NCBI GenBank assembly: GCA_046726415.1
Contig: JBKPAK010000271.1
Span: 1-18,254, forward strand
Direction: 5' to 3'
Length of the DNA stretch: 18,254 nucleotides
Source of the DNA: Candidatus Methylomirabilota bacterium
Lineage (GTDB): Bacteria > Methylomirabilota > Methylomirabilia > Rokubacteriales > CSP1-6
The position numbers and the translations under genes were made by a program. The notes beneath the pieces are model-generated. The model did not search any database. It saw only the letters and a program-made list of their open reading frames with translations, and was not told the origin of the DNA. How positions within the stretch are numbered: the stretch's first letter is position 1; each line of letters begins with the position of its first letter. Of this stretch, positions 3,215-17,749 are shown piece after piece.

Positions 3215-3231
3215 CCGGCAAGCGAGTTGCA
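3215..3231 (+). promoter_or_regulatory. Putative sigma54 -24/-12 promoter for the two microprotein genes
   Basis: CCGGCAAGCGAGTTGCA: GG(3217-18)-N10-GC(3229-30) with GGCA and TTGCA. Intergenic and oriented toward the genes at 3307 and 3519. Confidence 0.7.
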
Positions 3232-3306
3232 CTCCCTCAATCCTGAGGGCATGCCGGGCCTGTGCGACGAGCGGGGGATGTGTGCAGAACGTCACGAGGA
3301 GGGGGT

Positions 3307-3461
3307 ACGCTGAGCATCGTATTGCTCGTCATCTTGGTGCTTCTGTTGATTGGAGCCCTACCCTCATGGCCTTACAGCTCTGGCTGGGTTACGCGCCGAG
3401 CGGCGTCATCGGCGTGGTGCTGGTGGTCATCGTCATCTCGGCCCTGACAGGGCGCTTGTGA
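3307..3461 (+). pseudogene. DUF3309-family small membrane protein, frameshifted and with ACG in place of a start codon
   Basis: After the strong RBS GAGGAGGGGG, ACG-CTG-AGC reads (M)LSIVLLVILVLLLIGALPSWPYSSGW. The family continuation GYAPSGVIGVVLVVIVISALTGRL* lies in the -1 frame from 3387 to TGA 3459-3461, i.e. one G is missing at TGGG (3385-3388). Could be an assembly error. Confidence 0.75.
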
Positions 3462-3518
3462 TCGCCGCGCTCAAGCGGCACCACCGGGATGGACAGATCC
3501 ACTGAGAAGGAGGCCCCG

Positions 3519-3668
3519 ATGCTGTGGACGATCTTCGTGATCCTGCTGGTCTTGTGGGCGCTCGGGATGGTCAGCTCGTACACCTTGGGCGGGTTCATCC
3601 ACATTTTGCTGCTCATCGCATTGGCCGTCGTGCTGATCCGGATCATTCAAGGCCGACGACCCATATAA
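3519..3668 (+). CDS. lmo0937-family small membrane protein (49 aa), missed by the ORF track
   Basis: RBS AAGGAGG then ATG 3519. Translation MLWTIFVILLVLWALGMVSSYTLGGFIHILLLIALAVVLIRIIQGRRPI* has two hydrophobic helices and the GGxIHILL signature. Confidence 0.9.
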   Translation: MLWTIFVILLVLWALGMVSSYTLGGFIHILLLIALAVVLIRIIQGRRPI

Positions 3669-3688
3669 GGCCGGGGCTGGTCGTTTCT

Positions 3689-3883
3689 TCAAAGTGGACG
3701 GCTGGGCCCCTTCGCGCAGCTCGGGCAGACCTCTCGTTCCGCATCGTACGCGATGCCGTGCAGGGGACAGTTGACGATCGCCAAATTGGGGACGGATGGG
3801 CGCGTTGGCCCCCGTCCCCATACCCGCAGGAGCAGCCAGCCAATGGCCACCGACACCACCACGCCAAGGATTCGCCGGCTCAT
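3689..3883 (-). CDS. Hypothetical 64-aa membrane-anchored protein with CxxH...CxxC metal-binding motif
   Basis: N-terminal TM segment ILGVVVSVAIGWLLL, then CPLH-x10-CPSC. Starts 12 nt after the stop of the upstream minus-strand gene. Confidence 0.65.
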   Translation of the reverse strand: MSRRILGVVVSVAIGWLLLRVWGRGPTRPSVPNLAIVNCPLHGIAYDAEREVCPSCAKGPSRPL

Positions 3884-3895
3884 GGCGATGGCGGG

Positions 3896-4174
3896 TTAGC
3901 GCGGGAGCGGCGGAGGAGGCGCAATCGTCCCAGGCTGTGTTCTCGCCGACAGCCATACCCAGAAGTAGGGACTGGCGGCCGTCCCATCGCCCCGCAGCTC
4001 GTAGCGGCCTTCCGGATACGTCACGGTGCGCTGGGCGGGCGGGGTGACGATGACCGCCGCTGGAGGACTGGACGAGGGCACGACGGTCTCCGTCTTCGAT
4101 CGATAAATGCACCCGGCCGTCGTCGCCATAGGGGCGAGCGGGGCAACACCGAGGTAACGCTGTCGAGTCTTCAT
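3896..4174 (-). CDS. Hypothetical 92-aa proline-rich putative lipoprotein
   Basis: RBS GAGAGAGGA before ATG 4174. MKTRQRYLGVAPLAPMATTAGC has a lipobox-like TAGC, followed by a core TYPEGRYELRGDGTAASPYFWVW and a PPPPLPR tail. Only the last 92 aa of the 380-aa ORF-track frame look real. Confidence 0.7.
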   Translation of the reverse strand: MKTRQRYLGVAPLAPMATTAGCIYRSKTETVVPSSSPPAAVIVTPPAQRTVTYPEGRYELRGDGTAASPYFWVWLSARTQPGTIAPPPPLPR

Positions 4175-4214
4175 GGCGTCCTCTCTCGTGGCTTCTCCGG
4201 TCACCCGAGTGTCG

Positions 4215-4231
4215 AGCAACGGCTGTGCCGG
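4215..4231 (-). promoter_or_regulatory. Putative sigma54 -24/-12 promoter for the lipoprotein/zinc-microprotein pair
   Basis: The minus strand reads CCGGCACAGCCGTTGCT, a close match to TGGCAC-N5-TTGCW. Predicted +1 near 4204, about 30 nt before the ATG. Confidence 0.8.
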
Positions 4232-4244
4232 CAGAGCCGCCTCG

Positions 4245-4261
4245 CGGGCAACGCCTTTGCT
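4245..4261 (+). promoter_or_regulatory. Putative sigma54 -24/-12 promoter for the SRPBCC-dehydrogenase operon
   Basis: CGGGCAACGCCTTTGCT: GG(4247-48)-N10-GC(4259-60) with TTTGCT. Confidence 0.7.
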
Positions 4262-4414
4262 CTCGTCATGACACACCGTACTGAGGCCTTGGATGCTGCA
4301 GTTCGCCGGAGCCATGGCCGGCGTCGGCGGGTGGAGCGCTCGCGAGGTCGGTTGATCTGCATGGCCAGACCGGAGCTCAGGCGGGCTGGAACGCGGGAAG
4401 AGGAAGTCGGGAGT

Positions 4415-5152
4415 ATGGCCATCAGGGTGAACGTCAGTGACACCGAGCGTGCTTTGACGCTGATCGTCAGCGGAAGCTTGCTCGCCAGTGCCCTGGCCCG
4501 GGCGTCCTCTCGGTCCTCGTGGGGGCTGGGACTCATCGCCGGTGCTCTGGCCTACCGGTCCCTCCGCGGTCAGTGTCCCCTCTACCGCGCTCTGGGCTTG
4601 CGGACCGCGGCGGAGTCCGGCGGGCAAGGCGGAGTGGCCACAGCGCCGTCGGCGTTGTTGGTCGAGAAGAGCACCACCATCAGACGGCCGCGCGATGAGG
4701 TCTATCGGTTCTGCCGCACGCTCGACAATCTGCCACTCTTCATGACCCACGTGCAGGCCGTGAAGACGGCGCCCGATGGGACATCGCATTGGACGGTGCA
4801 GGGGCCAGCCGGGATCACTCTCGAGTGGGACGCCGAGGTGACGGCCGACACTCCGGGCGAGGTCATCGCCTGGTCGACGCGGGCGGACTCCGACGTCCGC
4901 CATGAAGGCACGGTGCGCTTCGCCCCGGCGCCCGGCGCGCGCGGCACCGAGATCCGCGTCCAACTGCGCTATGAATGCATGGGTGGCAAGCTCGCCGCCC
5001 TCGTGGCCACGTTGATGGGCGAGGAGCCGTCCCAGCAAGTGGAGAGCGATCTGCGGCGCCTGAAGCAGATCCTCGAAGCCGGCGAAGTGGCCACCGGAAC
5101 ACGGAGGCGGGGCATGAACGACATGGCCCCACGAGCATGGAGGTGGACATGA
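4415..5152 (+). CDS. DUF2892 + SRPBCC (cyclase/dehydrase, START-fold) family protein
   Basis: N-terminal NVSDTER...[10 protein letters not shown] is DUF2892/YgaP-like. It is followed by SRPBCC-type [45 protein letters not shown] and [14 protein letters not shown]. Start 4415 has a purine-rich RBS; an alternative in-frame ATG lies at 4361. Confidence 0.9.
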
Positions 5153-6318
5153 GAGCGGTGTGCTGGTACGGCGCTTCGGATGTGCGCGTGGAGACGGTAG
5201 CCGATCCGGAGATCGTGAACCCGCGCGACGCCATCATCCGCACGACGCGCACGGCCATCTGCGGCTCGGACCTTCACCTCTACAACGGCTACATCCCCAC
5301 CATGAAGCGCGGCGACATTCTTGGCCACGAGTTCATGGGCGAGGTGGTCGAGGTGGGCCCCGAGGTCCGGATCCTGGAGCAGGGCGACCGCGTCGTTGTT
5401 CCCTTCGCCATCGCATGCGGTGCCTGTCAGTACTGCGCGGAGGGTCTCTGGTCCCTCTGCGACAACTCCAACCCCAATGCCGCTACCCTGGAGACCCTGT
5501 ACGGCTTCGCGGGCAGCGGGCTGTTCGGGTACTCGCACCTCTACGGGGGATACGCGGGCGGGCAGGCCGAATACGTCCGCGTGCCGTTTGCCGACGTCGG
5601 TCCGCTCCCCGTTCCCGCGGACCTGTCGGACGAGCAGGTTCTGTTTCTGAGCGACGTGTTGCCGACGGGGTACATGGCGGCCGAGAATTGCCGCATCGAG
5701 CCCGGAGATGTGGTCGCGGTGTGGGGGTGCGGCCCCGTCGGTCTCTTTGCCATCCGCAGCGCCTGGATGCTGGGGGCCGAGCGGGTGTTCGCCATCGATC
5801 GCTTCCCGGAGCGCCTCGCCCTTGCCGAAACGTTCGGCAAGGCGGAGACGCTCAACTACGAAGCCCTCGATCTCATCGAGGAACTGAAGGTGCGCAGCGG
5901 CGGCCGGGGTCCGGACGCCTGCATCGACGCGGTCGGGCTGGAGGCGCACGGGACGACGGTCGATGCCTTTGTGGACCGGGCCAAGCACGCCGTGCGGCTG
6001 GCCACCGATCGCCCTCACGCCCTTCGCCAGGCCATTCAAGCGTGCCGCAAGGGAGGGACCGTGTCCATCACCGGAGTCTACGGAGGCTTTCTCGACAAGG
6101 TGCCGCTCGGCGCCGCCTTCGCCAAAGGGCTCACCCTGACCATGGGGCAAACGCACGTGCACCGGTACATGCGTCCCCTCCTGGAACGGATCGCCCGCGG
6201 AGACATCGATCCGTCGATGATCATCACCCACCGCCTGTCCTTGGAGGATGCGCCGCGCGGCTACGAGATGTTCCGGGACAAGCGCGAGGGGTGCGTGAAG
6301 GTCGTTCTCACGGCCTGA
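5149..6318 (+). CDS. Zinc-dependent alcohol dehydrogenase (MDR family, formaldehyde dehydrogenase-like/YbdR-like)
   Basis: RBS GGAGG and ATGA overlap with the upstream stop. Motifs [15 protein letters not shown], structural Zn CxxCxxC...C, LSDVLPTG and Rossmann GCGPVG. Confidence 0.95.
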
Positions 6319-7009
6319 GCGAATGGCGCCTCGGGTGTCGCGGCCTTCGGCGGAGCACCCAGGCGACCCTTTGCAGGTCCTGGACGAAGCGCTGCATCTC
6401 CTCGCGCCGGGCGGCCTCGTCAGGGCTGCGGAGCACCGCCGACGGGTGCACGGTGGCCATCACACGCGGCGCGAGCGACGAGGAGACAAAGCGTCCCTGC
6501 TGTTCGCGGACGCGGAAATCGCGGCCGAGCAATCCCTGCGCAGCGGTCGCTCCGAGGCACACGATCACCTCGGGGCTGATGCGGGCGATCTCGGCGCCCA
6601 CCCAGGGAAGGCAGGCAGCGACCTCCCGCCCGTTCGGCTTGGCGTGAATTCGCCGCTTTCCCCGGGGCTCCCACTTGAAGTGCTTCACGATATTGGTGAC
6701 GTAGACGTCCGAGCGGTCGATCCCCGCGGCCACCAGGGCCCGATCGAGCAGGCGCCCGGCCGGGCCCACGAACGGCTCTCCGGCGAGGTCCTCCTCGTGG
6801 CCAGGCTGTTCGCCCACGAACACGACGCGCGCCGTGGCGGGCCCACGTCCGAAGACGGTCTGGGTCGCCCTCCGGTACAGGTCGCAGGCCGTGCATCCGG
6901 CGGCGAGACGCCTCAGGGCGGCCAGGCCGAGGTGTGCCGGGATCCGAAGCACCGCGGGGGCCAGCGGGCCCGATGCGCGGCGAGTCACTCTGCCTGGAGC
7001 TCTGGCCAT
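6308..7009 (-). CDS. udgX: UdgX-family uracil-DNA binding protein (family 4 UDG with R-loop)
   Basis: Fe-S ligands CTACDL and AACLPW, motif A GEQPG, VKHFKW, the diagnostic KRRIH loop and motif B HPSAVLR. Confidence 0.93.
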
Positions 7010-7554
7010 CAGCCCCGGGCGGCGCTTGCGATGGCGCCGCAGGCGATGCGGCTACCGCTGTTCCCCGCCGGAACACTGCGCATGTCGTCCGGCGCAGCGT
7101 GAATGATGAGGGCGCTGCCGTCGGCGTCGAAGAGGGAGGCCGGCCCCTGGCGCAGCGTGATCTGGTTGGTGGTGACGTCGAGGCGGCCCTGTCCACTCGC
7201 GTCGATGCTGATGTTCGGCAGGTCGCCGCCATGCGGTCCTCGAGGATTTGCCAGACCGTGCTCCTTGCCCGTCGGATTGAAGTGGGCCTTGGCCGAGTCG
7301 AACGACGGCGCCTCGCAGTGTCCTACTTCGTGGATATGCACCGCCTTGTCACCCGGGGGCAGCCCCGCGACGTCGACGATGACCCGAACTCCGTCGCGGG
7401 TTTCCGAGAGAGTGGCTTTTCCCACTGTGCGACCGCTCCCATCCACGAGGTGCGCCGTGGAAGACGCGGTGCTGGCGGTATCGGGGGTCGGTGAGGTCGG
7501 CCCACTGCATCCGAACGAGACGGCGACGAGCCCGAGTATTGCCAGTGTCTTCAT
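7009..7554 (-). CDS. sodC: Cu/Zn superoxide dismutase family lipoprotein
   Basis: RBS GGAGGA before ATG 7554 and signal/lipobox MKTLAILGLVAVSFGC. All expected metal ligands are present (VHIHE, AHFNP, EHG, PHGGDL, IIHA), plus GSRIACG. The stop overlaps the udgX start (TGATG). Confidence 0.93.
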   Translation of the reverse strand: MKTLAILGLVAVSFGCSGPTSPTPDTASTASSTAHLVDGSGRTVGKATLSETRDGVRVIVDVAGLPPGDKAVHIHEVGHCEAPSFDSAKAHFNPTGKEHGLANPRGPHGGDLPNISIDASGQGRLDVTTNQITLRQGPASLFDADGSALIIHAAPDDMRSVPAGNSGSRIACGAIASAARG

Positions 7555-7608
7555 GCTTCCTCCGGGGCGATCTCGAAGGTTCCCCGACGAAGTCTCGGTG
7601 GGGGAGGC

Positions 7609-7625
7609 TGCAAGGCTCAGACCAC
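7609..7625 (-). promoter_or_regulatory. Putative sigma54 -24/-12 promoter for sodC-udgX
   Basis: The minus strand reads GTGGTCTGAGCCTTGCA: TGG-N10-GC with TTGCA. The -24 box deviates (GGTC instead of GGCA). Confidence 0.6.
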
Positions 7626-7695
7626 CGCGCTCGCGCCCTTCTGGCCTTCTATCTTTGTGCGATCTGCTGATTGATGCTGCCGCCCTGGCCAGTCG

Positions 7696-7712
7696 TTGGC
7701 GGTCTGCTTGCA
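7696..7712 (+). promoter_or_regulatory. Putative sigma54 -24/-12 promoter for the holin-like/DUF3618/DUF883 operon
   Basis: TTGGCGGTCTGCTTGCA: GG(7698-99)-N10-GC(7710-11). Predicted +1 near 7723, ATG at 7769. Confidence 0.72.
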
Positions 7713-7768
7713 ATCTCTGGATTAGCAGGCGAGCGGCGCCCGACGCGGCCGCGGTAGAGGATGGCACC

Positions 7769-8173
7769 ATGGCGGTCATTCAGAGAATCGATTTCGACAA
7801 GGAGGCCGATCGTGGGGGCCTCGGGATCCAGTTGGCGCGCCTCGCAAAACTGCATGCCGAGTTGGCTCTGGCCGAAGTGCGCGACCTGCTCGTCACGGCC
7901 GCGGTGGCCGTCGCGGTGGCCGTGCCCGCCGCTATCGCGATCGTGGCGGCGATCGTCGTGCTCATCGCAGCGGGCTTTGCGCCGCTCTTTGGAGCGCCGT
8001 GGGAGCACCTGGTGATCGCGGGCGGCGGTGTCTTGATCGTGTCATCTATAGCCATTGGCTGGAGCGTCTGGCGCCTGAGACACCTCAGGCTGCCTCGGGA
8101 GACGCTGAGAGCGCTGACGGAGAATTGGGAATGGCTCGTAGCTCAGGTGAGGTCCAGGCTGACATTGCGCTGA
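7769..8173 (+). CDS. Phage-holin-like family (YqjE/YhjD-type) two-TM membrane protein
   Basis: RBS AGAGGA. The pattern L..LHAELALAEVR is followed by two hydrophobic helices and a C-terminal PRETLRALTENWEWL, typical of this non-phage holin superfamily. Context includes a DUF883 gene. Confidence 0.8.
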   Translation: MAVIQRIDFDKEADRGGLGIQLARLAKLHAELALAEVRDLLVTAAVAVAVAVPAAIAIVAAIVVLIAAGFAPLFGAPWEHLVIAGGGVLIVSSIAIGWSVWRLRHLRLPRETLRALTENWEWLVAQVRSRLTLR

Positions 8174-8466
8174 CTCGAGAGGTCATCGAACGCGAGTTGG
8201 ACGCGCTCCATCGCCGCGTGCCCAAGCGCTGGTGGCTCTCCTACGCCTGGCTGGCTGGCGGCCTGGCGACGGGTGTGCTGCTGTCGCGCGCTCCACTGTT
8301 CGCTGTGGTGAGCCAGGGATTTCGGATGATCGAGTTCGGCGCCGCCCTGATGGGAACGGTGGCGATGCTCGAGCGCGCCCTTGCCGCGCGGCCGAAACCA
8401 CGCCCGGCAGGCTTTCTCGACGGCTATCATAAGACCACGAACCGCTTAGAAGGGGTGCCTCGATGA
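8131..8466 (+). CDS. DUF3618-like protein (YqjK-like position)
   Basis: MARSSGEVQADIALTREVIERELDALHRRV matches the DUF3618 amphipathic pattern and is followed by a TM segment. It overlaps the upstream gene by 43 nt and the downstream gene by ATGA. Confidence 0.72.
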   Translation: MARSSGEVQADIALTREVIERELDALHRRVPKRWWLSYAWLAGGLATGVLLSRAPLFAVVSQGFRMIEFGAALMGTVAMLERALAARPKPRPAGFLDGYHKTTNRLEGVPR

Positions 8467-8774
8467 CCGACCACGACGATGAGAGGAAGGCCCCGCTCGC
8501 CGATCTAAGCCACACGGCTCGTCGAGTCACCGAGTTAGGACGTGAGACGGCCGCGAAGACCAGTGAGTACGTCCGGGGGGGCCTCGACCGCGCCGCGGAG
8601 TACGCCGAGGACTTGACGGGTCGTGCGAGTGATCGCATCAGCGACTTCACGGGCCGCCCGCTCGACGTGTGGGCGCGCGAGCTCCGCCAGTTCGTCGAAC
8701 ACTCGCCGATAAAAGCCCTCGTCATCGCCGTCGTCGCCGGCTATCTGCTCGGGAGGGCCGTGCGCCGCAGCTGA
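8463..8774 (+). CDS. DUF883 / YqjD-ElaB family tail-anchored protein
   Basis: A helical hydrophilic body, then FVEHSPIKALVIAVVAGYLLGRAVRRS, the C-terminal glycine-zipper TM with basic tail. Confidence 0.85.
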   Translation: MTDHDDERKAPLADLSHTARRVTELGRETAAKTSEYVRGGLDRAAEYAEDLTGRASDRISDFTGRPLDVWARELRQFVEHSPIKALVIAVVAGYLLGRAVRRS

Positions 8775-8795
8775 GAGGAGCGAGCGCGGCGCTGG

Positions 8796-8820
8796 GTCGC
8801 TCCCTGCGAGGGATAGCGAC
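8796..8820 (+). terminator. Possible terminator hairpin after the DUF883 gene
   Basis: GTCGCTCCCT-GCG-AGGGATAGCGAC forms a 10-bp stem with a 2-nt bulge, 21 nt after the stop. Only a weak tail (ACTAATT) follows. Confidence 0.35.
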
Positions 8821-8930
8821 ACTAATTCGACGTCGCGCCCGCCGCCCACCGAGGGGTCGTCGAGCTCGTCGACGTCGGGCGCCCTTTCTGCTTCACCGTT
8901 TTGCAGAAGCTGCAGGTGCCCGCCCCGCCC

Positions 8931-8954
8931 GATGCCCCTTCAGATGCCCCTTCA
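8931..8954. repeat. Perfect 12-bp tandem duplication
   Basis: GATGCCCCTTCA at 8931-8942 and 8943-8954. Confidence 0.9.
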
Positions 8955-8991
8955 ATTGGGCGCGTTGAAGCATGCGGGCGATCCTTAGCCG

Positions 8992-9008
8992 GTGGCATCG
9001 ACGCTGCA
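8992..9008 (+). promoter_or_regulatory. Putative sigma54 -24/-12 promoter for the BON-M48 operon
   Basis: GTGGCATCGACGCTGCA: TGGCA, GG(8994-95)-N10-GC(9006-07). Confidence 0.75.
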
Positions 9009-9092
9009 GTGCACGAGAACGAGCGGTGGGGCCTTAGAGCCGGCCCACTAAGAATTGGCCAGCTCCAGCCACCGCCGAGAAGGAGGACCCCG

Positions 9093-9692
9093 ATGCGAAG
9101 CCAATGGATGACTGGCGTGGTCCTGGCGGTGCTGATCGCCGCACCCGTGGCCATCGAGGCCCAGACCTCGACCGACAGCGGGACAAAGACCGAGCGCGCT
9201 GTAGACAAGACTAAGGACGCGGCCGGGAAAGCGACCGCCGCGACCAAAGACAGTTGGATCACCGCGAAGGCGAAGATCGCTCTCTACGCGGATGATCGTG
9301 TCTCGGGCAGCGACATCAACGTCGATACCCAGAATGGCACGGTGACGTTGCGCGGAAAGGTAGCCACGGCCGACGAGAAGCGCGCGGCCGACGAAGTGGC
9401 GAAGACGGTGGACGGCGTGGCCGCGGTCCGCAACGAGCTCCAGGTGGTGCCCGCCGCCGAGCGCAAGGCGGTCAATGCCGAGGACAAGGATCTCAAGAAC
9501 GCGATCCAGAAGCGAATCAAGCAGGATGCGCGGCTGAAGGGTGCAGATATCGACGTGCAGGTCGACCGCGGCGTGGTGACCTTGATGGGTGATGTCAAGG
9601 ACGTGGGCGCGCGCGCCCGCGCCTCAGAAGTGGCTCGTGCCGTGCCGGGCGTTCGCTCGGTGAAGAACGAGCTTCGCGAGAAGAGCAGCTAG
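9093..9692 (+). CDS. OsmY-like periplasmic protein with two BON domains
   Basis: RBS AAGGAGG and a signal peptide ending AIEA. BON1 reads DSWITAKAKIAL...INVDTQNGTVTLRG...VDGVAAVRNEL and BON2 reads DKDLKNAI...IDVQVDRGVVTLMG...VPGVRSVKNEL. Confidence 0.93.
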   Translation: MRSQWMTGVVLAVLIAAPVAIEAQTSTDSGTKTERAVDKTKDAAGKATAATKDSWITAKAKIALYADDRVSGSDINVDTQNGTVTLRGKVATADEKRAADEVAKTVDGVAAVRNELQVVPAAERKAVNAEDKDLKNAIQKRIKQDARLKGADIDVQVDRGVVTLMGDVKDVGARARASEVARAVPGVRSVKNELREKSS

Positions 9693-9694
9693 CC

Positions 9695-10387
9695 ATGCAG
9701 TGGATGCGGCTCGCGGCGGTCATCATCGCCTGCGCGGCGAGCGGAGCCTGCGCCGTGGGAAGCGAGGCTCCGCCCCGCGAGCCGTCTCCCTCTCCCTCTC
9801 CCGCTCCGACCTCGCGCGCCGGAACTCCGAGCACGCGGCCACTCGGTCCCGAACAGGCGGCGCGGCTCCAGCGGCTGATGATTCCCCTCGTCAAGGCCAT
9901 GGATCACCCGAAGCCTCTGAACCAGGTGAAGATCGCCGTGATCGACGATCCCGGTATCAACGCCGCCAACGCCGGCGGGGGCCAGTTCTACGTGACTCGC
10001 GGCTTGCTCGAGCGCGCGAACGACGATCAGCTCCTCGGCGTCCTGGCTCATGAGGTTGCGCATGACGACCTCGGGCACGTGGCCAAAGTTCAAGTCCTGG
10101 GCGCTGGCGTCGGTCTGGGAATCATCCTGCTCGACCAGCTCGTCCCTGGAAGCCGGGCCCTCACGCCGATCGCCGGGGAGCTGATCGTCCGGGGGTACAG
10201 CCGGCGTGAGGAATATGAGGCTGACCGCCACGGCGTGACCTTGCTGCGACGCATTGGCCGATCCAAGGACGTCATGGTCAACACCCTGACGTGGCTGCTG
10301 CAGAGCTCCGGACCAAGTGGGGGTGGATTTCTCGCGACCCACCCCGCGACGGGCGACCGGATCCAGGCCCTCCGTGAGCTGAAGTAG
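9695..10387 (+). CDS. M48 family zinc metallopeptidase, probable lipoprotein
   Basis: INAA, VTRGLL, HEXXH (LAHEVAH), YSRREEYEAD and THP motifs. N-terminal signal with Cys and a Pro/Ser linker. Starts 2 nt after the BON stop. Confidence 0.92.
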   Translation: MQWMRLAAVIIACAASGACAVGSEAPPREPSPSPSPAPTSRAGTPSTRPLGPEQAARLQRLMIPLVKAMDHPKPLNQVKIAVIDDPGINAANAGGGQFYVTRGLLERANDDQLLGVLAHEVAHDDLGHVAKVQVLGAGVGLGIILLDQLVPGSRALTPIAGELIVRGYSRREEYEADRHGVTLLRRIGRSKDVMVNTLTWLLQSSGPSGGGFLATHPATGDRIQALRELK

Positions 10388-10449
10388 CCGCAGACGGCTG
10401 GAGGGCCTCCTCTGCTTCGCTGACGCGGTGGGACTTGCTTGTCCGCGTC

Positions 10450-11616: not shown

Positions 11617-11783
11617 TCACGAGTAGTGTCAGCGTCACGAACGCGATCCGTCGCGGCGATTTAGCCGCGGGCCAGTGACCGCTGGTCCAGCGACGAGGCC
11701 GCGAGTTCGTGCAAGTTGCCGGGACAACAGTGCTCTGCCGATTGATTCGCCTCACGGCAACGGCGATCCCGAAAGGCGACTGC

Positions 11784-11800
11784 CTGGCATGGCGTCTGCA
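11784..11800 (+). promoter_or_regulatory. Putative sigma54 -24/-12 promoter for the LigD polymerase-domain gene
   Basis: CTGGCATGGCGTCTGCA: GG(11786-87)-N10-GC(11798-99). Predicted +1 near 11811, followed by RBS AAAGGA and GTG 11840. Confidence 0.75.
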
Positions 11801-11839
11801 TACGCTGGGCTAGAGTCAGGGCGAAAGGATTTGGCCGAC

Positions 11840-12763
11840 GTGACGAGTCGTCTGCTTGATATCGAGGGTCGCCGTCTCATTTTGGCGGAGGTGGGGTCTC
11901 CGGCGTGGTCGGGTGCTGGCCTGTCCAAGGCGGACCTCCTCGCCTATTACCTGGAGGTGGCAGACGAACTGCTTCCGTTTCTCCGCAATCGACCCACGAG
12001 CGTGGTCCGACGGAGCGAAAGCGGGCTCGAGGGCTGGAGCTTCGAAAAGAGCCCGGGCCCCGGCCTTCCGGGCTGGATTGGCCGATGCCAGGTGCGTGAT
12101 GAGTTGTCCCTGGCCCTGGTAGAGTGCGTCGTGGTCGACGAACGCGCGGCACTGGCCGCCTTGGTCAATACTGGATGTCTTTCGTTTCACCCCTGGAGCG
12201 CGACCTGCTCCGCGATCGACCGGCCCGATCAGATGTTGTTTGACGTCGATCCAACCGAGATCGCCTTTCGCGAGGTCCGCAACGCGGCGCTGCTTCTGCG
12301 GGACTTGCTCGCCCGATACGGCATTCGGAGTTGGGTGAAGACCTCAGGCGGTCGGGGAATACATGTGATGGTTCCCCTGCGTCCCCTTCATGCCTTCGAC
12401 GAGGTGCGTGCCGCCGCCGGGCTGATCGCGCGAGCGGCGCGCGTGCGAGAGCCCAAACTCTTCACCTTCGAGGTTCGCCGATCTCGGCGACGAGGTCGCA
12501 TTCTGGTCGACATCGAGCGCAACCGCTGCGGGGCGGCTCTGGTCAGTGCGTTCTCGGTCCGCCCGGAGTCCGGGCTGATCTCGGCCCCCCTGGACTGGCA
12601 GGATCTCGAACGTGCGGTCTATCCGGAAGACTTTCCCATGAGCGCGGCGAAGGCTCAGCATGCGAAGCTCGGCGCCCCTCTTCGCGAGTTCTTCGACCAT
12701 CCCCAGTCTCTCGAGCCTCTGCTCGACGTTGTCAAGGCACGGCAGCGACGCTCCGCAGGGTGA
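11840..12763 (+). CDS. Stand-alone LigD polymerase/primase (AEP) domain protein
   Basis: SKADLLAYY..V...LLPFLRNRP, FHPW, RPDQMLFDVDP (DxD), KTSGGRGIH, ILVDIERN and FSVR...SAPLDW. No ligase or phosphoesterase domain. Start inferred from the RBS and promoter. Confidence 0.88.
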   Translation: MTSRLLDIEGRRLILAEVGSPAWSGAGLSKADLLAYYLEVADELLPFLRNRPTSVVRRSESGLEGWSFEKSPGPGLPGWIGRCQVRDELSLALVECVVVDERAALAALVNTGCLSFHPWSATCSAIDRPDQMLFDVDPTEIAFREVRNAALLLRDLLARYGIRSWVKTSGGRGIHVMVPLRPLHAFDEVRAAAGLIARAARVREPKLFTFEVRRSRRRGRILVDIERNRCGAALVSAFSVRPESGLISAPLDWQDLERAVYPEDFPMSAAKAQHAKLGAPLREFFDHPQSLEPLLDVVKARQRRSAG

Positions 12764-12877
12764 TGTCTTCCGGCCGTTGAGCTGTACTCCGTGCATCGCG
12801 TATTGTATGTTCTGCAATAATCGAAGGCGGGCCTCGCGGATAGCGCTCAAAGTCATCGAAAGACAACGAGCTATCCT

Positions 12878-12894
12878 TTGGCATGCAACCTGCT
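12878..12894 (+). promoter_or_regulatory. Putative sigma54 -24/-12 promoter for the NtrC-type activator
   Basis: TTGGCATGCAACCTGCT: GG(12880-81)-N10-GC(12892-93). Predicted +1 near 12905, ATG at 12938. Confidence 0.78.
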
Positions 12895-12937
12895 CGATGT
12901 CAGGAGTTTCAAGCCAGCCGGAGACGAGAGGGAACAT

Positions 12938-14329
12938 ATGCTTGACCGACGAACTTCCGGCGCCAGGGTCCTCGTCGTCGATGACGAGCCGGCAGAGCGC
13001 GAAATGTTGGCTCGGCTCATCGGGCAGTGGGGGTACGAGGTCGAGGCCGCGGAATCGAGCGATGAGGCACTCTCGCTAACGGAGACCTATCGGCCTGCTG
13101 TCGTGGTCACGGATCTGATTCTGCCGGGGACCGATGGGCTGAGTCTCTTGCAAACGCTTCGGGACAGTAACCGTCCCCCGGTGGTGCTCCTGGTCACGGG
13201 CCACGCGACGGTGGAATCCGCCGTCGAGGCGATGCGGCATGGCGCCCTGGATTATCTGACCAAGCCCATCGATGCGACGAGGCTGCAGCTGCTCCTCGAG
13301 AAGGCTGTGGAGCAGGATTCGCTCTCGCGCGAAGTGACTCTCCTGCGCCGCGAGCTCCGGCAAAGGGGCACCTTCGGCCGCTTCGTGGGGCAGTCCAAGC
13401 GAATGCAGGAGGTCTATCACCTCATCGAGCTGATGGCTACCAGCAATGCGCCGGTGCTGATCCATGGGGAGAGCGGGACCGGCAAGGAGCTGGCGGCGCG
13501 GACGGTACACGAGCTGTCCGATCGGCGGGCCCGGCCCTTCGTGGCCATCAACTGCGCCGCCATCCCCGAGACGCTCATCGAGAGCGAGATGTTCGGTCAC
13601 GAGCGAGGCGCGTTCACCGGCGCCAGCGAGCGGCGGATCGGCTGTTTCGAGCTGGCTGACGGGGGCACCCTGTTTCTCGACGAGGTGGCCGAGATGAACG
13701 CCGCCACCCAGGCCAAGCTGCTGCGCGTACTGGAAGACGCGGGCTTCCGACGGGTGGGCGGCAAGACGGAGGTCACGGTCGACGTCCGTGTGATCGCCGC
13801 CACCAACCAGGTGCCGGCCGAGGCCCTGGCCAGCGGCAAGCTGCGCGAGGATCTCTTCTACCGGCTGAGCGTGTTCGTCGTCGAGCTGCCTCCGCTCCGC
13901 GAACGGACCGAAGACATCCCATTGCTCGCCGCGACTTTCATTGAGGACTTCAACGCTCAGAACAATCGCTCGGTCAAGGGACTCACCCCGGAAGCGGAAG
14001 AGGCCCTCATGCGACACCCGTGGCCCGGCAATGTCCGCGAGCTGCGAAACGCCATGCACCGCGCGGTGGTGCTGGCCGGAGAGGGGGCCATCCCGCGGGA
14101 GCACTTGCCGCCTATCATACTGGGCGGGACGTCGCGCTCGGCGCGCGCCGCGGAGTTCAGCAAGGTCATCCCGCTGAAGGACGTGGAGCGCGAGATGATC
14201 GTCCGCGCCCTCGATGAGGCGAACTACCACAAGCCGCAGGCCGCGGCCATGCTGGGCATCAGCCTCAAGACGCTTTACAACAAGCTCGCTCGTTTTGGCC
14301 TGCCTCCCAACCGGGCGTCGGCTCCGTAG
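12938..14329 (+). CDS. Sigma54-dependent response regulator (NtrC/AtoC family: REC-AAA+-Fis HTH)
   Basis: REC motifs VLVVDDE / VVTDLILPG / LTKP. AAA+ motifs are Walker A GESGTGKE, ESEMFGHERGAFTGA (intact GAFTGA), Walker B LFLDE, REDLFYRL and WPGNVREL. HTH AAAMLGISLKTLYNKL. RBS GAGAGGGA. Confidence 0.96.
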   Translation: MLDRRTSGARVLVVDDEPAEREMLARLIGQWGYEVEAAESSDEALSLTETYRPAVVVTDLILPGTDGLSLLQTLRDSNRPPVVLLVTGHATVESAVEAMRHGALDYLTKPIDATRLQLLLEKAVEQDSLSREVTLLRRELRQRGTFGRFVGQSKRMQEVYHLIELMATSNAPVLIHGESGTGKELAARTVHELSDRRARPFVAINCAAIPETLIESEMFGHERGAFTGASERRIGCFELADGGTLFLDEVAEMNAATQAKLLRVLEDAGFRRVGGKTEVTVDVRVIAATNQVPAEALASGKLREDLFYRLSVFVVELPPLRERTEDIPLLAATFIEDFNAQNNRSVKGLTPEAEEALMRHPWPGNVRELRNAMHRAVVLAGEGAIPREHLPPIILGGTSRSARAAEFSKVIPLKDVEREMIVRALDEANYHKPQAAAMLGISLKTLYNKLARFGLPPNRASAP

Positions 14330-15021
14330 TGCGCTCGGAGCTCGAAACCATCGACCACGTGCTGCGGGGAGCGTTGAACACCGCCATGCTGAACCTGCAA
14401 TTGGTCTCCACCTCCGTCGGGCGCGACGAGCAGACGGCCCCGCTGCTCGACCGGGCGCGTGCGGAAATCCGGCGGGTGGCCGAGGTGCTGCTGCCAGCTG
14501 GGTTCAGCGTTCTCGGCCTCGAGGCCTCGGACGTCCGGCCGCTCGACGTGCGCCAGCTCGTGGAGGAAACGCTCGCCCAGCACGCGCTGGGGCCGGTGGT
14601 CGTAGCGGCCGGCCCGTGGCCAGCCGTGGTCGCCGATGCCGCGTTACTCGCCACAGCCATCGCGCACCTGGTTCGCAACGCGGTGGCGGCCACTCCAGCC
14701 GAGGGGCCAGTGCCCCAGGTTGCGGTCGATACGAGCGTCGAGGGTGAAGTAGCGCTTGTCGTGCGGAACACGTGCGCGGGCACGGTTCCACCCCTCGGCG
14801 AGGACGGCACACCCGTCGCTCGCGGGCACATCGGCGGCGTGACCGCCGTGGTGCGCATCGCTCGGCTGCACGGGGGCGCGCTGCGCTTCGAACGGCAGGA
14901 CCGCGAGCTGGTGGCGCGGCTGTCGATCCCGAACGCGCTACGCGACGGCCAAGCAGAGCCCGGTCATCAGCACTCGAGGGCGCGGAGCGCGCGAGTGCGG
15001 CAGAGCGTCTGGAAGCGGTAG
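14329..15021 (+). CDS. Sensor-less, degenerate histidine-kinase-like protein (DHp + HATPase_c-like)
   Basis: The GTG overlaps the regulator stop (TAGTG). It has an H-box-like DHVLRGALN at residue 10, an N-box-like HLVRNAVAA and a C-terminal RIARLHGGALRFE. G1 and G2 boxes are degenerate (NTCAG, GHIGG). Confidence 0.75.
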   Translation: MRSELETIDHVLRGALNTAMLNLQLVSTSVGRDEQTAPLLDRARAEIRRVAEVLLPAGFSVLGLEASDVRPLDVRQLVEETLAQHALGPVVVAAGPWPAVVADAALLATAIAHLVRNAVAATPAEGPVPQVAVDTSVEGEVALVVRNTCAGTVPPLGEDGTPVARGHIGGVTAVVRIARLHGGALRFERQDRELVARLSIPNALRDGQAEPGHQHSRARSARVRQSVWKR

Positions 15022-15714
15022 CACCCCCAGCCGATCGTCCTGCGTCGGAATCATCGAGGGAAGATCGCCGGGCGGCATGTCGATCAGTCTCGGCTGGCCT
15101 GGTCGGCCCAACTCCAGAAGGCGCCGAGCCATCCCCACCATGATCTGCGTCCCCGTCAGCCCGTCGTGCTGGGAGAGCTGGCTCGCCTCCTGGGCACTCG
15201 GGTGGGGGACGAAGCGCTTGACCGTCCGGATGCATAGGTCTTCGAGACCATTGATGGGGTCACCCGGTTGGATCCACGGCTGTCGGACGACCGGCCCCCT
15301 TGGGTGCGCACCGATCATTACGAGTACCTCCGGGCGGCGCCGGACGCCCCACGCCGCCTTGGCGAGCGGGTGAGCGAGGCGATGGCGGTTCGCTCCCAGC
15401 GCGGCTTGTGGAAGAACCAGCACGGTAGCCCGGGGCTCCCAGTCGTTGATCCGAAGCAGGGCTTCCGCCAGGGCTGGGGCAGTACCGCGATCGCCCGCCT
15501 GGAGCATCGGGATCGCACCGAGCCGCTCGGCATGCGCGGACATGTGCTCATCGACGTCGACCGTGAGGACGACCATGAGGCGTCGCCCGGGCACGAGGCT
15601 CAGCGCTCGGTCCACGCTGCCGGCGAATTCCGCCGTGTCGAACTGTTCCCATGCCGCCCGCGGCGGGCGGCGGTGCGGGAGGAGGAGTCCCCAAACGTGG
15701 CCCTGACCAACCAT
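14938..15714 (-). CDS. Degenerate mannose-1-phosphate guanylyltransferase-like (nucleotidyltransferase fold) protein
   Basis: The scaffold is recognisable (VWGLLL, QF, VDRALSLVP, LQAGDRGTAPAL, TVLVLP, LVMIGAHP, WIQPG, VKRFV..P), but the catalytic motifs are altered and the C-terminus is short. Confidence 0.7.
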   Translation of the reverse strand: MVGQGHVWGLLLPHRRPPRAAWEQFDTAEFAGSVDRALSLVPGRRLMVVLTVDVDEHMSAHAERLGAIPMLQAGDRGTAPALAEALLRINDWEPRATVLVLPQAALGANRHRLAHPLAKAAWGVRRRPEVLVMIGAHPRGPVVRQPWIQPGDPINGLEDLCIRTVKRFVPHPSAQEASQLSQHDGLTGTQIMVGMARRLLELGRPGQPRLIDMPPGDLPSMIPTQDDRLGVLPLPDALPHSRAPRPRVLMTGLCLAVA

Positions 15715-15725
15715 GGCTGCTCAGT

Positions 15726-15744
15726 ATGGCAACCGCGATGCCGT
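15726..15744. promoter_or_regulatory. Palindromic two-way sigma54 -24/-12 motif between divergent genes
   Basis: Core GGCA-ACCGCGA-TGCC (15728-15742). The plus strand reads ATGGCAACCGCGATGCC and the minus strand ACGGCATCGCGGTTGCC; both are GG-N10-GC. Confidence 0.62.
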
Positions 15745-15782
15745 CGAGATCAGGAGCAATCTTGGGCAGGGCGGATTCCCTC

Positions 15783-16337
15783 GTGAAGGTCTTCCACTGT
15801 GGCAACTGCCGGCACCTCGTGTTCTTCGAGAACACGCGATGCGTGAGATGCGAGCGCATGCTCGCCTATCTCCCTCACCGGGAGTCCATGGCGACGCTCG
15901 TGCCGGAGGGAGACCACGGATGGCGAGCGCTGGCCGTCCCGGTCGAACGCCTTCGGCTGTGCGAGAACTACACCGCGCACGACGTGTGCAATTGGGTGGC
16001 CCCCGCCGACGACTCGAAGCCCCTGTGCATCTCATGCCAACTCACAGGCGTCATTCCGGACCTGTCGCGTGTGGGCGCCAAGCAGGCGTGGTATCGGCTC
16101 GAGGCGGCCAAGCGCCGGCTGGTGTCCTCGCTGCTCACCTTGAAACTCCCGCTGGTCAGTCGCGAGGCCGATGCCGAGCGCGGATTGGAGTTCAAGTCCA
16201 GGAGTTCCGAATCCGAAGTAGCCCAAGCGAGACGAGGGCGGTCAGTGCGTGCCGCCGGCCAGGCAACAAGGCGCTCCGATTCCGCCGGGCTTCAGGCGAT
16301 GGCGGGCCAGCGGCTTTGGTCGGTCATGACCGGTTGA
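15783..16337 (+). pseudogene. Truncated putative zinc-binding metallopeptidase (DUF2248-type zinc-ribbon N-terminus)
   Basis: MKVFHCGNCRHLVFFENTRCVRC, LCENY...VCNW, CISCQL..VIPDLS, WYRLEAAKRRL and GLEF match the family N-terminal half. Similarity ends near 16195 and no HExxH domain follows. An in-frame TTG at 15762 with AGGAG is an alternative start. Confidence 0.75.
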
Positions 16338-17749
16338 TGGCGATGTTGCGACGGCGGGATTCCCAGCTCGACTCGGTATTTCGCCACCGTCCGTCGCGCG
16401 ATGTGGAGTCCCCGCCCGCGCAGGTGGGAGGCGATCTCGAGGTCGGAGAGTGGCTTGGCCGGATCCTCGGCCGTCACGCAGTCCTGGATCATCGTCTTGA
16501 CCGAGATGGACGACACCTTGCCGCCCCCGTCGGCGGCCAGGCCGTTTTGGAAGAAGAAGCGCAGCTCGTACAGCCCGCGCGGCGTGTCCACGTACTTGTT
16601 GGCGGTCACCCGGCTCACCGTGGACTCGTGCATACCGATGTCCTCGCTCACGTCATGCAAGGCCAGCGGCCGCAGATGGGCGACGCCCTTGTCCAGGAAG
16701 TCCCGCTGGAAGCGAAAGATCGAATCGGCCACTTTGCGCAAGGTGCGTTGGCGCTGCTCCACGCTCTTGATGAGCCAAAGAGCCGATCGCACCTTCTGCT
16801 CCACGTAGTGCCGCGCCTCGTCGCCCGATTGGCGCAGCAAGGACCGATAGAAGGCATTGATGCGGAGGCGAGGCACGCCCTCCTCGTTGAGCGCCACCAC
16901 ATAGTCCGTCCCCACTTTGTGGATGATGACGTCGGGGACGACGTAGCGCGGATCCTGGCTGTCGAAGCGCCGACCGGGCTTGGGCTCCAGCCGGTGAATG
17001 CTCTCAATGGACTGCATGACCTGCTCGGGCGTCACCTTGAGGACGCGCGCGAGATCGCCGTAGCGGCGGCGACCGAGTTCGGGAAAATGATGCTCGACGA
17101 TGGCGATGGCCAGGGCATCGGGCGCGGGGGCGGCCCGCAGCTGGAGCAGCAGGCACTCCTGGACCGACCGCGCAGCCACCCCCGGCGGGTCGAAGCCCTG
17201 CACGAGGGCCAGCACTCTGTGGACATCCGCCGGGCGCGCGGCGCAGCCGCGCGCGATGTCCTCCAGGTCGGCCCGAAGATAACCGTCATCGTCGAGGTTC
17301 CCGATGATGGCGCCGCCGACGCGGCGCACCAGCGAATCGTCCGTGGATAGGCGCAGCTGTTCGTCGAGGTGGTCGCCCAGGGAGTCCACCGTGCGCAGCG
17401 CGCTTTCAAACGGCTGCTCGCGCTCCTCCTCGGCGACCAGCGAGCGGTCGGGGGGACCGTCGTCCCCTACCGCGGTGACGTCGAAGGGCAAATCATGGCT
17501 CGGTGGCTCGCGTGGCCCCGTGGCCTCGAGGCTCACCTCCGACGGAAGGTCCGGGCTCGCAGCCGAGTCACCTCCGTCCGGGGTGTCGCCGGGGTCGGTG
17601 GATTCCTCGAGCAAAGGGTTTTCCAGCAACTCATTCTGGACCACTTGCTGCAGATCTGCGGTCGAGAGCTGAAGGAGCTCGATGGCCTGCTGGAGAGCGG
17701 GGGTCATGATCACCCGCTGACTCTGTCGAAGCGCGAGCTGCTGTTCCAT
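16292..17749 (-). CDS. rpoN: RNA polymerase sigma-54 factor
   Basis: Region I MEQQLALRQSQ..MTPALQQAIELLQLS, IIGNLDDDGYL, DPPGVAARSVQECLLLQL, HTH MHESTVSRVTANKY, ELRFFF, PLSD and RpoN box ARRTVAKYR. Confidence 0.97.
   Translation of the reverse strand: MEQQLALRQSQRVIMTPALQQAIELLQLSTADLQQVVQNELLENPLLEESTDPGDTPDGGDSAASPDLPSEVSLEATGPREPPSHDLPFDVTAVGDDGPPDRSLVAEEEREQPFESALRTVDSLGDHLDEQLRLSTDDSLVRRVGGAIIGNLDDDGYLRADLEDIARGCAARPADVHRVLALVQGFDPPGVAARSVQECLLLQLRAAPAPDALAIAIVEHHFPELGRRRYGDLARVLKVTPEQVMQSIESIHRLEPKPGRRFDSQDPRYVVPDVIIHKVGTDYVVALNEEGVPRLRINAFYRSLLRQSGDEARHYVEQKVRSALWLIKSVEQRQRTLRKVADSIFRFQRDFLDKGVAHLRPLALHDVSEDIGMHESTVSRVTANKYVDTPRGLYELRFFFQNGLAADGGGKVSSISVKTMIQDCVTAEDPAKPLSDLEIASHLRGRGLHIARRTVAKYRVELGIPPSQHRHQPVMTDQSRWPAIA

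Follow-up and report, generated by a model that had tools for sequence, protein, structure and literature searches.

A probable sigma-54 regulon of stress-protection genes under a resident NtrC-type activator in a relative of uncultured Rokubacteria

The stretch of DNA analysed here, 18,254 bp of contig JBKPAK010000271.1 with a G+C content of 63–71% (hereafter, the window), comes from a soil-type bacterium whose closest relatives are uncultured Rokubacteria. The window probably contains eight or more clustered transcription units, each placed behind a sigma-54 (−24/−12) promoter and served by an activator encoded within the cluster, which together would make up a survival programme. Judged from the sequence, the cluster is most likely a sigma-54 regulon in which a two-component activator controls stress-protection genes as well as its own expression. 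The evidence supports reading the motifs before these units as putative sigma-54 promoters, as they are enriched, oriented towards genes and conserved before the orthologues in two related genomes. The gene map used throughout is based on Pfam and NCBIfam profile matches, direct reading of the intergenic DNA and manually set start codons.

Sigma-54-type motifs in the window

The consensus of sigma-54 promoters is TGGCAC-N5-TTGCW. It is quoted in the form TGGCACRNNNNTTGCW in a study of Ralstonia (PMC4371752). In this analysis, each site was scored by the number of matches among the 11 specified positions of TGGCAY-N5-YTGCW, where GG and GC were fixed. The original prediction had reported ten GG-N10-GC 17-mers (3215+, 4231-, 4245+, 7625-, 7696+, 8992+, 11784+, 12878+, 15726+ and 15744-), and direct reading found all of them at these coordinates and on these strands; on the gene map, all ten are intergenic and each is aimed at a downstream gene, as had been claimed. 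The corresponding sites are as follows.

3216..3231, plus strand: motif CGGCAAGCGAGTTGCA, 9/11, 78 nt upstream of the DUF3309 open reading frame (ORF)
4215..4230, minus strand: motif CGGCACAGCCGTTGCT, 10/11, 40 nt upstream of the lipoprotein ATG at 4174
4246..4261, plus strand: motif GGGCAACGCCTTTGCT, 9/11, 153 nt upstream of the SRPBCC ATG at 4415
7609..7624, minus strand: motif TGGTCTGAGCCTTGCA, 9/11, weaker, −24 element off consensus, 54 nt upstream of the SodC ATG at 7554
7697..7712, plus strand: motif TGGCGGTCTGCTTGCA, 9/11, 56 nt upstream of the YqjE-like ATG at 7769
8993..9008, plus strand: motif TGGCATCGACGCTGCA, 11/11, strong, 84 nt upstream of the OsmY ATG at 9093
11785..11800, plus strand: motif TGGCATGGCGTCTGCA, 11/11, strong, 39 nt upstream of the LigD GTG at 11840
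12879..12894, plus strand: motif TGGCATGCAACCTGCT, 11/11, strong, 43 nt upstream of the activator ATG at 12938
15727..15743, both strands: sequence TGGCAACCGCGATGCCG, 9/11, weak and doubtful

As shown in the list, eight sites score 9–11/11, three of which reach 11/11, and the start codons lie 39–153 nt downstream of the motifs. The spacing from GG to GC is exactly 10 nt at the sigma-54-type sites. The sites 7625- (TGGTCT...) and 7696+ (TGGCGG...) fall outside the pattern GGCA-N7-TGC, in agreement with the earlier description of eight fitting sites. A second, weaker motif, GGGCGCCCTTTCTGCT (9/11), is present at 8877–8892, 116 nt 5' of the strong OsmY site and in the same orientation, which could be a tandem promoter or a chance match. 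The divergent motifs at 4215–4261 stand back to back, 15 bp apart; this arrangement is unusual for activator-dependent promoters, as the shared spacer is too small for an enhancer.

The intergenic DNA amounts to 1,546 bp, and the rest of the window to 16.7 kb. Of the matches to the bare pattern GG-N10-GC, 36 are intergenic and 378 lie elsewhere, in proportion to length (binomial p = 0.46); because it is not enriched, it is uninformative alone in a G+C-rich window. The extended pattern GGCA-N7-TGC occurs 8 times in the intergenic DNA and twice elsewhere (binomial p = 1e-7), and when the intergenic DNA was shuffled 2,000 times with its dinucleotides preserved, the mean was 0.31 and the maximum 5 matches. 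Over the whole window, 10 matches to this pattern compare with 4.09 ± 2.31 in shuffled sequence, at least 10 being reached in 4 of 200 shuffles, and the stricter TGGCA-N7-TGCW gives 4 matches against 0.19 expected, a number that none of 200 shuffles attained. Matches of at least 9/11 to TGGCAY-N5-YTGCW number 10 in the intergenic DNA and 11 elsewhere (p = 2.8e-6; shuffle mean 0.96). When 15726+ and 15744- are counted once, there are nine independent sites and seven independent matches to GGCA-N7-TGC.

Other promoter classes were also searched for. A sigma-70 consensus scan of 3000–18254 found 0 sites against 1.0 expected, and the EcfG-type pattern GGAAC-N15-18-CGTT gave 0 matches; both scans are consensus-based and exclude near-consensus promoters only. 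In the Pfam scan of the window ORFs, no gene for a sigma factor of the sigma-70 family was found.

Conservation in two Rokubacteria genomes

The activator protein was searched once against representative genomes, which gave 80 loci. The best two, L010 and L011, belong to metagenome-assembled genomes of Rokubacteria/Rokuibacteriota, where the activator is 69% identical to that of the window; in all other loci, the identity is at most 52%. Synteny with the window in L010 and L011 covers the genes of the YqjE-like protein, DUF3618, the LigD polymerase domain, DUF883, M48, BON, the activator, the kinase and an unknown gene, with protein identities from 27% to 69%. In the TGGCAY-N5-YTGCW scan, each of the two loci carries five motifs of 10–11/11, of the form TGGCA-N7-(T/C)GC, which precede the YqjE-like gene, DUF883, M48, a DksA-BON-activator-kinase operon and the unknown gene.

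The original prediction had called for conservation of the motif upstream of orthologues, and such conservation was found in L010 and L011 for the YqjE-like unit, M48, the activator operon and the unknown gene; the motifs are retained before the orthologous units although the surrounding intergenic DNA has diverged. The motifs TGGCAATACTCTTGCT (L010) and TGGCAGCCGAATTGCT (L011) precede the YqjE-like orthologue, and this conserved placement in the two genomes supports 7697+. Likewise, TGGCACGACA(A/T)CTGCC precedes the activator-containing operon in L010 and L011. A separate sigma-54 motif stands before the M48 orthologue (64% identity) of both genomes, and in the window M48 has moved behind OsmY. 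The LigD orthologues (52% identity) are located inside the YqjE operon in L010 and L011, and the window LigD gene has its own motif. Both M48 and LigD are still behind a motif in the window.

A ten-site matrix was built from the L010 and L011 motifs only; it overfits the spacer and was kept out of the final counts. The top ten matches of this matrix include 11785+, 8993+, 15743-, 12879+, 4230- and 3216+ of the window, of which 11785+ is the best match at 18.7 bits.

At 1165–5830 of L010, an ImuB-like (IMS) gene and a gene for a DnaE2-type error-prone polymerase lie directly 5' of the YqjE-LigD operon, so that the L010 cluster adjoins a mutagenic-repair cassette.

The relatives also bear on two matches that call for caution. 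The entries 15726+ and 15744- are a single sequence, GGCA-N7-TGCC, whose self-complementary ends match both strands by construction. This sequence (15727..15743) lies 40 nt upstream of the Zn-ribbon gene on the plus strand and 13 nt upstream of the ATG at 15714 on the minus strand; 15743- would leave a leader of about 3 nt, and its −12 element is off consensus. The alignment of the conserved protein encoded at 14938–15714 with its homologues in L010 and L011 (35–36% identity) begins at the first residues, and these orthologues have a strong motif 47–55 nt upstream. The YqjE-like motifs at L010 5882–5913 and L011 4269–4300 end 15 nt before the ATG, with a near-leaderless transcript implied (leader of about 5 nt), and a very short leader is on this account not disqualifying for 15743-. 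The site 15727..15743 remains doubtful as a promoter. The second match, TGGCAGACGAACTGCT at 11958–11973 (+), scores 10/11 within the LigD gene, where it encodes VADELL; its L010 counterpart scores 9/11. It was rejected as a promoter, since the codons for VADELL explain the match and the motif is not retained in L010, and it indicates that coding sequence can mimic a sigma-54 motif.

This mimicry, together with the proportionate distribution of the bare pattern, would suit an explanation in which the motif is no promoter at all but either arose by chance in GC-rich DNA or is bound by some unrelated regulator. Such an explanation is highly improbable in view of the enrichment of the extended motif (p = 1e-7), the strict 10-nt spacing, the orientation, the conservation and the co-occurrence with rpoN and a GAFTGA activator.

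Activator, kinases and rpoN

A local rpoN and a GAFTGA activator had been predicted, and the domains of both were confirmed by Pfam and NCBIfam; the activator itself stands behind a sigma-54-type motif. The activator combines PF00072 (REC), PF00158 (AAA+), PF25601 (AAA lid) and PF02954 (HTH_8), and GAFTGA can be read in the translation. A motif is found before the activator operon in all three genomes, that is, in the window, L010 and L011, which argues for positive autoregulation of the activator-kinase operon. The small kinase encoded next to the activator has no recognisable sensor domain, and its L010 homologue contains HisKA and HATPase. The hybrid sensor kinase at the left end of the window (2..3154), which is below every NCBIfam equivalog cutoff, is a candidate signal input with a putative connection to the activator.

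The rpoN gene is full-length, with PF00309, PF04963 and PF04552, the activator-interacting, core-binding and DNA-binding domains, all above their cutoffs; it scores 443 bits against a cutoff of 277 for TIGR02395 and contains the RpoN box ARRTVAKYR. It begins 15 nt after DUF3047, the promoter of DUF3047-rpoN lies beyond the window, and no motif of at least 9/11 is found in the 500 bp upstream within the window. At its 3' end, rpoN overlaps by 46 nt with the convergent Zn-ribbon gene, which retains positions 2–51 of 236 of Peptidase_Mx. The Zn-ribbon and rpoN ORFs both run on into low-complexity tails. The overlap has the appearance of a junction left by a deletion or rearrangement, or of a join made in assembly, and the adjacency of rpoN to the cluster may be recent or incidental. 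In L010 and L011, no rpoN is found in the 10 kb to the left or to the right of the activator. The earlier description of a self-contained island is supported only in part, by the presence of both rpoN and the activator in the window, and is made doubtful by the lack of an rpoN within this distance in L010 and L011 and by the truncated gene that the window copy abuts.

Gene content of the cluster

The genes of the window are listed below in order of position.

2..3154, plus strand: hybrid sensor histidine kinase (Cache, 2–3 PAS, GAF, HisKA, HATPase, REC; Pfam), 5' end cut by the window edge
about 3310–3461, plus strand: DUF3309 gene in two reading frames (Pfam)
3519–3668, plus strand: lmo0937-family/DUF5670 membrane protein (NCBIfam NF033488, 60 bits against a cutoff of 30)
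3883–3689, minus strand: membrane/Cys-rich protein of 64 amino acids (aa) (direct reading and translation)
4174–3896, minus strand: predicted lipoprotein (direct reading and translation)
4415–5152, plus strand: YgaP-like transmembrane and SRPBCC protein (Pfam, NCBIfam)
about 5149–6318, plus strand: Zn-dependent alcohol/formaldehyde-type dehydrogenase (Pfam, NCBIfam)
7009–6308, minus strand: UdgX-family uracil-DNA-binding protein (NCBIfam TIGR03914, 267 bits against a cutoff of 190)
7554–7009, minus strand: Cu/Zn superoxide dismutase SodC (Pfam)
7769–8173, plus strand: YqjE-like/Phage_holin_3_6 protein (Pfam)
8131–8466, plus strand: DUF3618-like protein (L010 homologue matches DUF3618 in Pfam)
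8463–8774, plus strand: DUF883/ElaB-like protein (L010 homologue matches DUF883_C in Pfam)
9093–9692, plus strand: OsmY-like periplasmic protein with two BON domains (Pfam, NCBIfam)
9695–10387, plus strand: M48 metalloprotease (Pfam, NCBIfam)
10450–11616, minus strand: MBL-fold hydrolase (Pfam)
11840–12763, plus strand: stand-alone LigD primase-polymerase domain protein for end-joining repair, GTG start (Pfam, NCBIfam)
12938–14329, plus strand: NtrC-type activator (Pfam, NCBIfam)
14329–15021, plus strand: small soluble histidine-kinase-like protein, 230 aa (weak HATPase match)
14938–15714, minus strand: conserved protein with weak nucleotidyltransferase-like similarity (NCBIfam TIGR01479, E = 8e-5, far under cutoff)
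15783–16337, plus strand: truncated Zn-ribbon (DZR_6) protein (Pfam)
16292–17749, minus strand: rpoN, sigma-54 (Pfam, NCBIfam, RpoN box)
17765–18253, minus strand: DUF3047 gene (Pfam)

Several of these units deserve comment. In DUF3309, the frame breaks near 3385 in a run of G, with profile positions 1–26 in one frame and 27–50 in another, which reflects a recent frameshift or else an error of sequencing or assembly; the best in-frame start is unusual, either CTG (3310) or TTG (3322). No Pfam or NCBIfam match was obtained for the lipoprotein or for the 64-aa protein. The translations of the SRPBCC protein and the Zn-dehydrogenase show two genes with a stop/start overlap and no fusion. SodC and the UdgX-family protein are encoded in one unit with SodC first and a 1-nt overlap, which puts a DNA-damage protein together with an oxidative-stress enzyme. 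The YqjE-like, DUF3618-like and DUF883/ElaB-like genes form one operon of small membrane-associated proteins (tblastn identity to L010 27–56%), and the latter two proteins of the window have no direct Pfam match. A megablast search of the window against PLSDB returned only three weak alcohol dehydrogenase matches, so that the window is not a known plasmid.

The original claim of a motif before nearly every transcription unit applies to about 8 of 11 or 12 units. It does not extend to the MBL-fold hydrolase, whose upstream region has no sigma-54 motif in the motif scans and which is probably outside the regulon, and two units share the one doubtful site.

A parallel in Burkholderiales

After Rokubacteria, two Acidobacteriota and several Myxococcota rows, the activator search gave 48 Burkholderiales loci with activator identities of 45–49%. 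In a quick maximum-likelihood tree with midpoint rooting, these 48 activators form one clade with a support of 100 in the Shimodaira–Hasegawa-like approximate likelihood-ratio test (SH-aLRT), and this clade contains the nearest cultured relatives of the window activator. An rpoN homologue is located within 10 kb of the activator in 19 Burkholderiales loci (L012, L013, L015, L017, L021, L029, L030, L033, L038, L039, L041, L045, L048, L050, L051, L055, L062, L076 and L081), and in all 19 a motif of 10–11/11 lies 33–102 nt upstream of it. These loci span Alcaligenaceae and Burkholderiaceae and include the Ralstonia solanacearum megaplasmid locus. According to Ray et al. (PMC4371752), rpoN2 of Ralstonia has an upstream sigma-54 promoter and depends on rpoN1, and its role "remains enigmatic"; Lundgren et al. 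(PMC4676750) found no metabolic or virulence phenotype for it. Neither 2015 study could settle the role of this second rpoN, and by term search both main texts lack the word "stress".

Over all loci, 178 motif matches lie outside strong ORFs, and 45 downstream ORFs were scanned against Pfam. Glyco_transf_20 (OtsA-like) was found in 4 of 4 tested ORFs of roughly 480 aa; CsbD and DJ-1/PfpI were found twice each, DUF883 twice with a further weak match, and DUF3309, hemerythrin, ferritin-like DUF2383 and a hybrid PAS kinase once each. Four more matches are weak or unrelated, and 26 of the 45 ORFs have no match. The DUF3309 gene of L043 is placed behind TGGCATAGCAATTGCT, an analogue of 3216+ in the window. 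Around rpoN in the Caballeronia locus L038 are DUF883, OtsA-like, BrkB/YihY, BON, DUF2383 and DUF4142 genes and a second, receiver-less activator. Such a receiver-less sigma-54 activator, with AAA+ and HTH only, lies beside the related activator at L038 6946–8013, L012 7837–8919 and L082 10734–11711, and the window has no counterpart of it. A Burkholderia stagnalis plasmid record has BON, SDR, DUF2795, ferritin-like, alcohol dehydrogenase and Hsp20 genes near the related activator, and in a Paraburkholderia plasmid record the neighbours are Ku, LigD, hemerythrin and Hsp20, where motifs precede a BON operon and Ku.

In 24 Burkholderiaceae loci (L025–L062, L079), a motif of the form CGGCAY- or GGGCAT-N5-(C/T)TTGCT stands about 60–230 nt after the activator gene. 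The ORF after it encodes 56–187 aa, mostly 68–92; of seven that were scanned, six have no Pfam match and that of L045 is DJ-1/PfpI, so these ORFs appear to encode mostly unnamed small proteins. Of the 24 loci having a motif just 3' of the activator gene, 23 have C or G before GG, and the recurrence of these bases makes the CGGCA and GGGCA variants of the window more credible.

These loci raise the question of whether the window rpoN is likewise a dedicated second sigma factor, an RpoN2-like paralogue serving the cluster, with a housekeeping rpoN elsewhere, so that the island would be self-contained. The 19 activator-linked rpoN genes, which lie amid stress-type genes and behind their own sigma-54 motif, point in this direction. 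The usual downstream neighbours of rpoN are of the hpf/ptsN type, and the window rpoN is flanked by DUF3047 and the Zn-ribbon gene instead. We nevertheless consider a dedicated sigma factor unlikely, as L010 and L011 keep the cluster with no rpoN within 10 kb of the activator, the window rpoN, unlike the 19 Burkholderiales copies, has no motif of at least 9/11 in the 500 bp upstream, and its overlap with a truncated gene suggests rearrangement. The identity of 35–38% between the window rpoN and the Burkholderiales copies is uninformative on paralogy.

Weighing of the regulon

Several observations weigh against a single sigma-54 regulon covering all eight units. Five of the eight sites score only 9–10/11; three have no T before GG, C or G replacing the usual T at 3215+, 4231- and 4245+, and one has TGGTCT. 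The L010/L011 matrix gives 7624- and 4246+ about 6 bits, near background, and 7697+ falls outside its top 30. The DUF3309, lipoprotein, SRPBCC-alcohol dehydrogenase and SodC-UdgX units have no orthologues in the fetched loci. In 18 upstream regions, no shared palindrome with arms of 4–5 nt and spacers of 0–12 nt was detected, and two sequence blocks that L010 and L011 have in common do not occur in the window, where no activator-binding site was found; at 4215–4261, the 15-bp gap means that any enhancer must fall inside a transcribed region. The activator is under all named NCBIfam equivalog cutoffs (the best is AtoC, 436 bits against 714), and the HATPase match of the small kinase is weak, at E = 4e-5 and short of the Pfam cutoff. 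In the quick midpoint-rooted tree, the Burkholderiales clade, the window clade and the two Acidobacteriota rows group at an SH-aLRT of only 91.

The weaker sites would be accounted for if only 8993+, 11785+, 12879+ and probably 7697+ and 4230- worked, whereas 3216+, 4246+, 7624- and 15727/15743 were chance or non-functional matches and their units used other promoters. The background-range matrix scores of 4246+ and 7624- agree with such a partial regulon, as do the off-consensus units that offer no orthologous promoters for comparison and the 11 matches of at least 9/11 in coding DNA. It is distinctly unlikely all the same. When the three strongest sites are removed, four independent GGCA-N7-TGC matches remain in 1.5 kb against 0.31 expected, all aimed at genes; many Burkholderiaceae loci keep CGGCA and GGGCA variants at orthologous positions; and the sigma-70 and EcfG scans gave no alternative promoter consensus.

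Since no enhancer was found, we infer rather than observe that one activator serves all eight promoters. The autoregulation, the kind of signal and the role in physiology are likewise inferred. The promoters might be real and the response narrower than a general one, directed at one specific insult to resting cells, be it envelope, oxidative or DNA damage, perhaps with several activators. The missing common enhancer, the presence of a hybrid kinase in addition to a second kinase in the window and the second, receiver-less activator of the Burkholderiales loci are in line with this, and one locus cannot define a genome-wide programme. A narrower response is somewhat unlikely, in that the gene set covers envelope, oxidative, osmotic and DNA-repair functions, like the general-stress regulons of model bacteria, and the Burkholderiales loci add trehalose synthesis, CsbD and ferritin-like proteins, with Hsp20 in the flanks of two plasmid records.

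Proposed mechanism

In the preferred reading, a sigma-54 regulon under the resident activator, the sigma-54 RNA polymerase would sit at the promoters as a closed complex, and transcription would be permitted once the NtrC-type response regulator is phosphorylated on its receiver. The phosphorylated activator would form an ATPase ring and remodel the closed complex via its GAFTGA loop. The phosphate would probably come from the small adjacent kinase, perhaps with input from the PAS/GAF/Cache hybrid kinase. As the activator-kinase operon has the same promoter type, the response would be self-amplifying. The neighbouring rpoN may supply the sigma factor and need not be dedicated to the cluster.

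The predicted products would include small envelope protectants (DUF3309, lmo0937-family, YqjE-like, DUF3618-like, DUF883/ElaB-like, OsmY/BON and the lipoprotein) together with the M48 protease, SodC, the SRPBCC protein and Zn-dehydrogenase, the UdgX-family protein and the LigD polymerase domain. Such a programme would favour the survival of non-growing, drying or oxidatively stressed cells through sigma-54 and one activator, with no stress sigma factor of the sigma-70 family. In model bacteria, OsmY/BON, ElaB-type DUF883, YqjE-like, SodC, lmo0937-family, DUF3309 and LigD proteins are members of the RpoS, SigB or EcfG regulons. The label of general stress, desiccation or dormancy would follow from this gene content and from the comparison with the model regulons.

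Comparison with known systems

The window resembles NtrBC, ZraSR, AtoSC and other regulons of bacterial enhancer-binding proteins in its REC-AAA+(GAFTGA)-Fis-type HTH activator, the adjacent kinase, the TGGCA-N7-TGC promoters and the autoregulated operon. In contrast to NtrBC, ZraSR and AtoSC, its putative targets are stress protectants, SodC and repair enzymes instead of nitrogen, zinc or acetoacetate genes, its activator is below the named equivalog cutoffs, and its small kinase lacks any recognisable sensor domain. Enterobacteria use sigma-54 with one activator, PspF or RtcR, to turn on genes for envelope stress or repair. The window ORFs scanned contain no PspA or Rtc domain, and the window activator differs from PspF in having a receiver domain; it would serve many promoters, whereas PspF and RtcR serve one or two.

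The regulons of RpoS (Escherichia coli), SigB (Firmicutes) and EcfG (Alphaproteobacteria) are alike in gene content, to which the related loci add OtsA-like and CsbD proteins. They differ from the window in promoter type, as the −24/−12 promoters of the window would make an ATPase activator obligatory and the sigma-70 and EcfG consensus were not found; because the defining promoter type of the sigma-70-family stress regulons was tested for and not found, the cluster is not a member of them. The rpoN2 locus of Ralstonia and other Burkholderiales has some likeness to the window in its related activator (45–49% identity), its PAS kinase and its small stress-type genes, and in having sigma-54 motifs; its gene content is shared in part only (DUF883, BON, DUF3309, LigD/Ku), and it differs in the sigma-54 motif before its own rpoN.

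Two further candidates were set aside. The low-oxygen (lxa) locus of Burkholderia cenocepacia has similar BON and Hsp20 genes, but the motif described there is the Anr/FNR-like TGA-N6-TCA (PMC3721108), and in an insect-associated Burkholderiaceae island the sigma-54 regulator belongs with a pyrroloquinoline quinone (PQQ)/formaldehyde gene set and is unrelated (PMC9088363). The Bordetella activator BP2158 (PMC11722255) is a lead only.

In the open-access literature searched, there was no paper on Rokubacteria and sigma-54, no relevant paper on sigma-54 activators and osmY, and no description of a sigma-54 general-stress or desiccation regulon. By term search, the main text of a 2025 survey of sigma-54 regulons across phyla (PMC12316311) does not contain "general stress", "osmY" or "desiccation", and a 2025 review of stress in Paraburkholderia (PMC12117332) does not mention rpoN or sigma-54. 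A 2026 paper presents the plasmid-borne RpoN of Bradyrhizobium DOA9 as "fine-tuning stress responses" (PMC13207237), so that the idea of an accessory, stress-linked RpoN is already in print.

Biological meaning

A wider reading, which we offer tentatively and as a possibility short of probable, is that a sigma-54 system with one family of NtrC-type activators is a widespread, unrecognised counterpart of the RpoS/SigB/EcfG response, present in Rokubacteria and, together with a dedicated rpoN2 that itself depends on sigma-54, in Burkholderiales. It would control protectants for desiccation and dormancy, namely OsmY/BON, DUF883, CsbD, DUF3309, trehalose synthesis, SodC and end-joining repair, and, if true, it would provide a function for the "enigmatic" RpoN2 of Ralstonia and its relatives.

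Unlike other sigma factors, sigma-54 confers tight, all-or-none control and requires an activator that hydrolyses ATP. Should an entire survival programme depend on sigma-54, stress entry in these soil lineages would be a phosphorelay-gated switch instead of a competition among sigma factors. In that case, phyla that have neither RpoS nor EcfG would gain a concrete candidate for a general stress regulator, and the cultured Burkholderiales loci would offer a direct way to test the role of the second rpoN. The interest of the cluster lies chiefly in the testable function that it would give to a conserved activator family and to accessory copies of rpoN.

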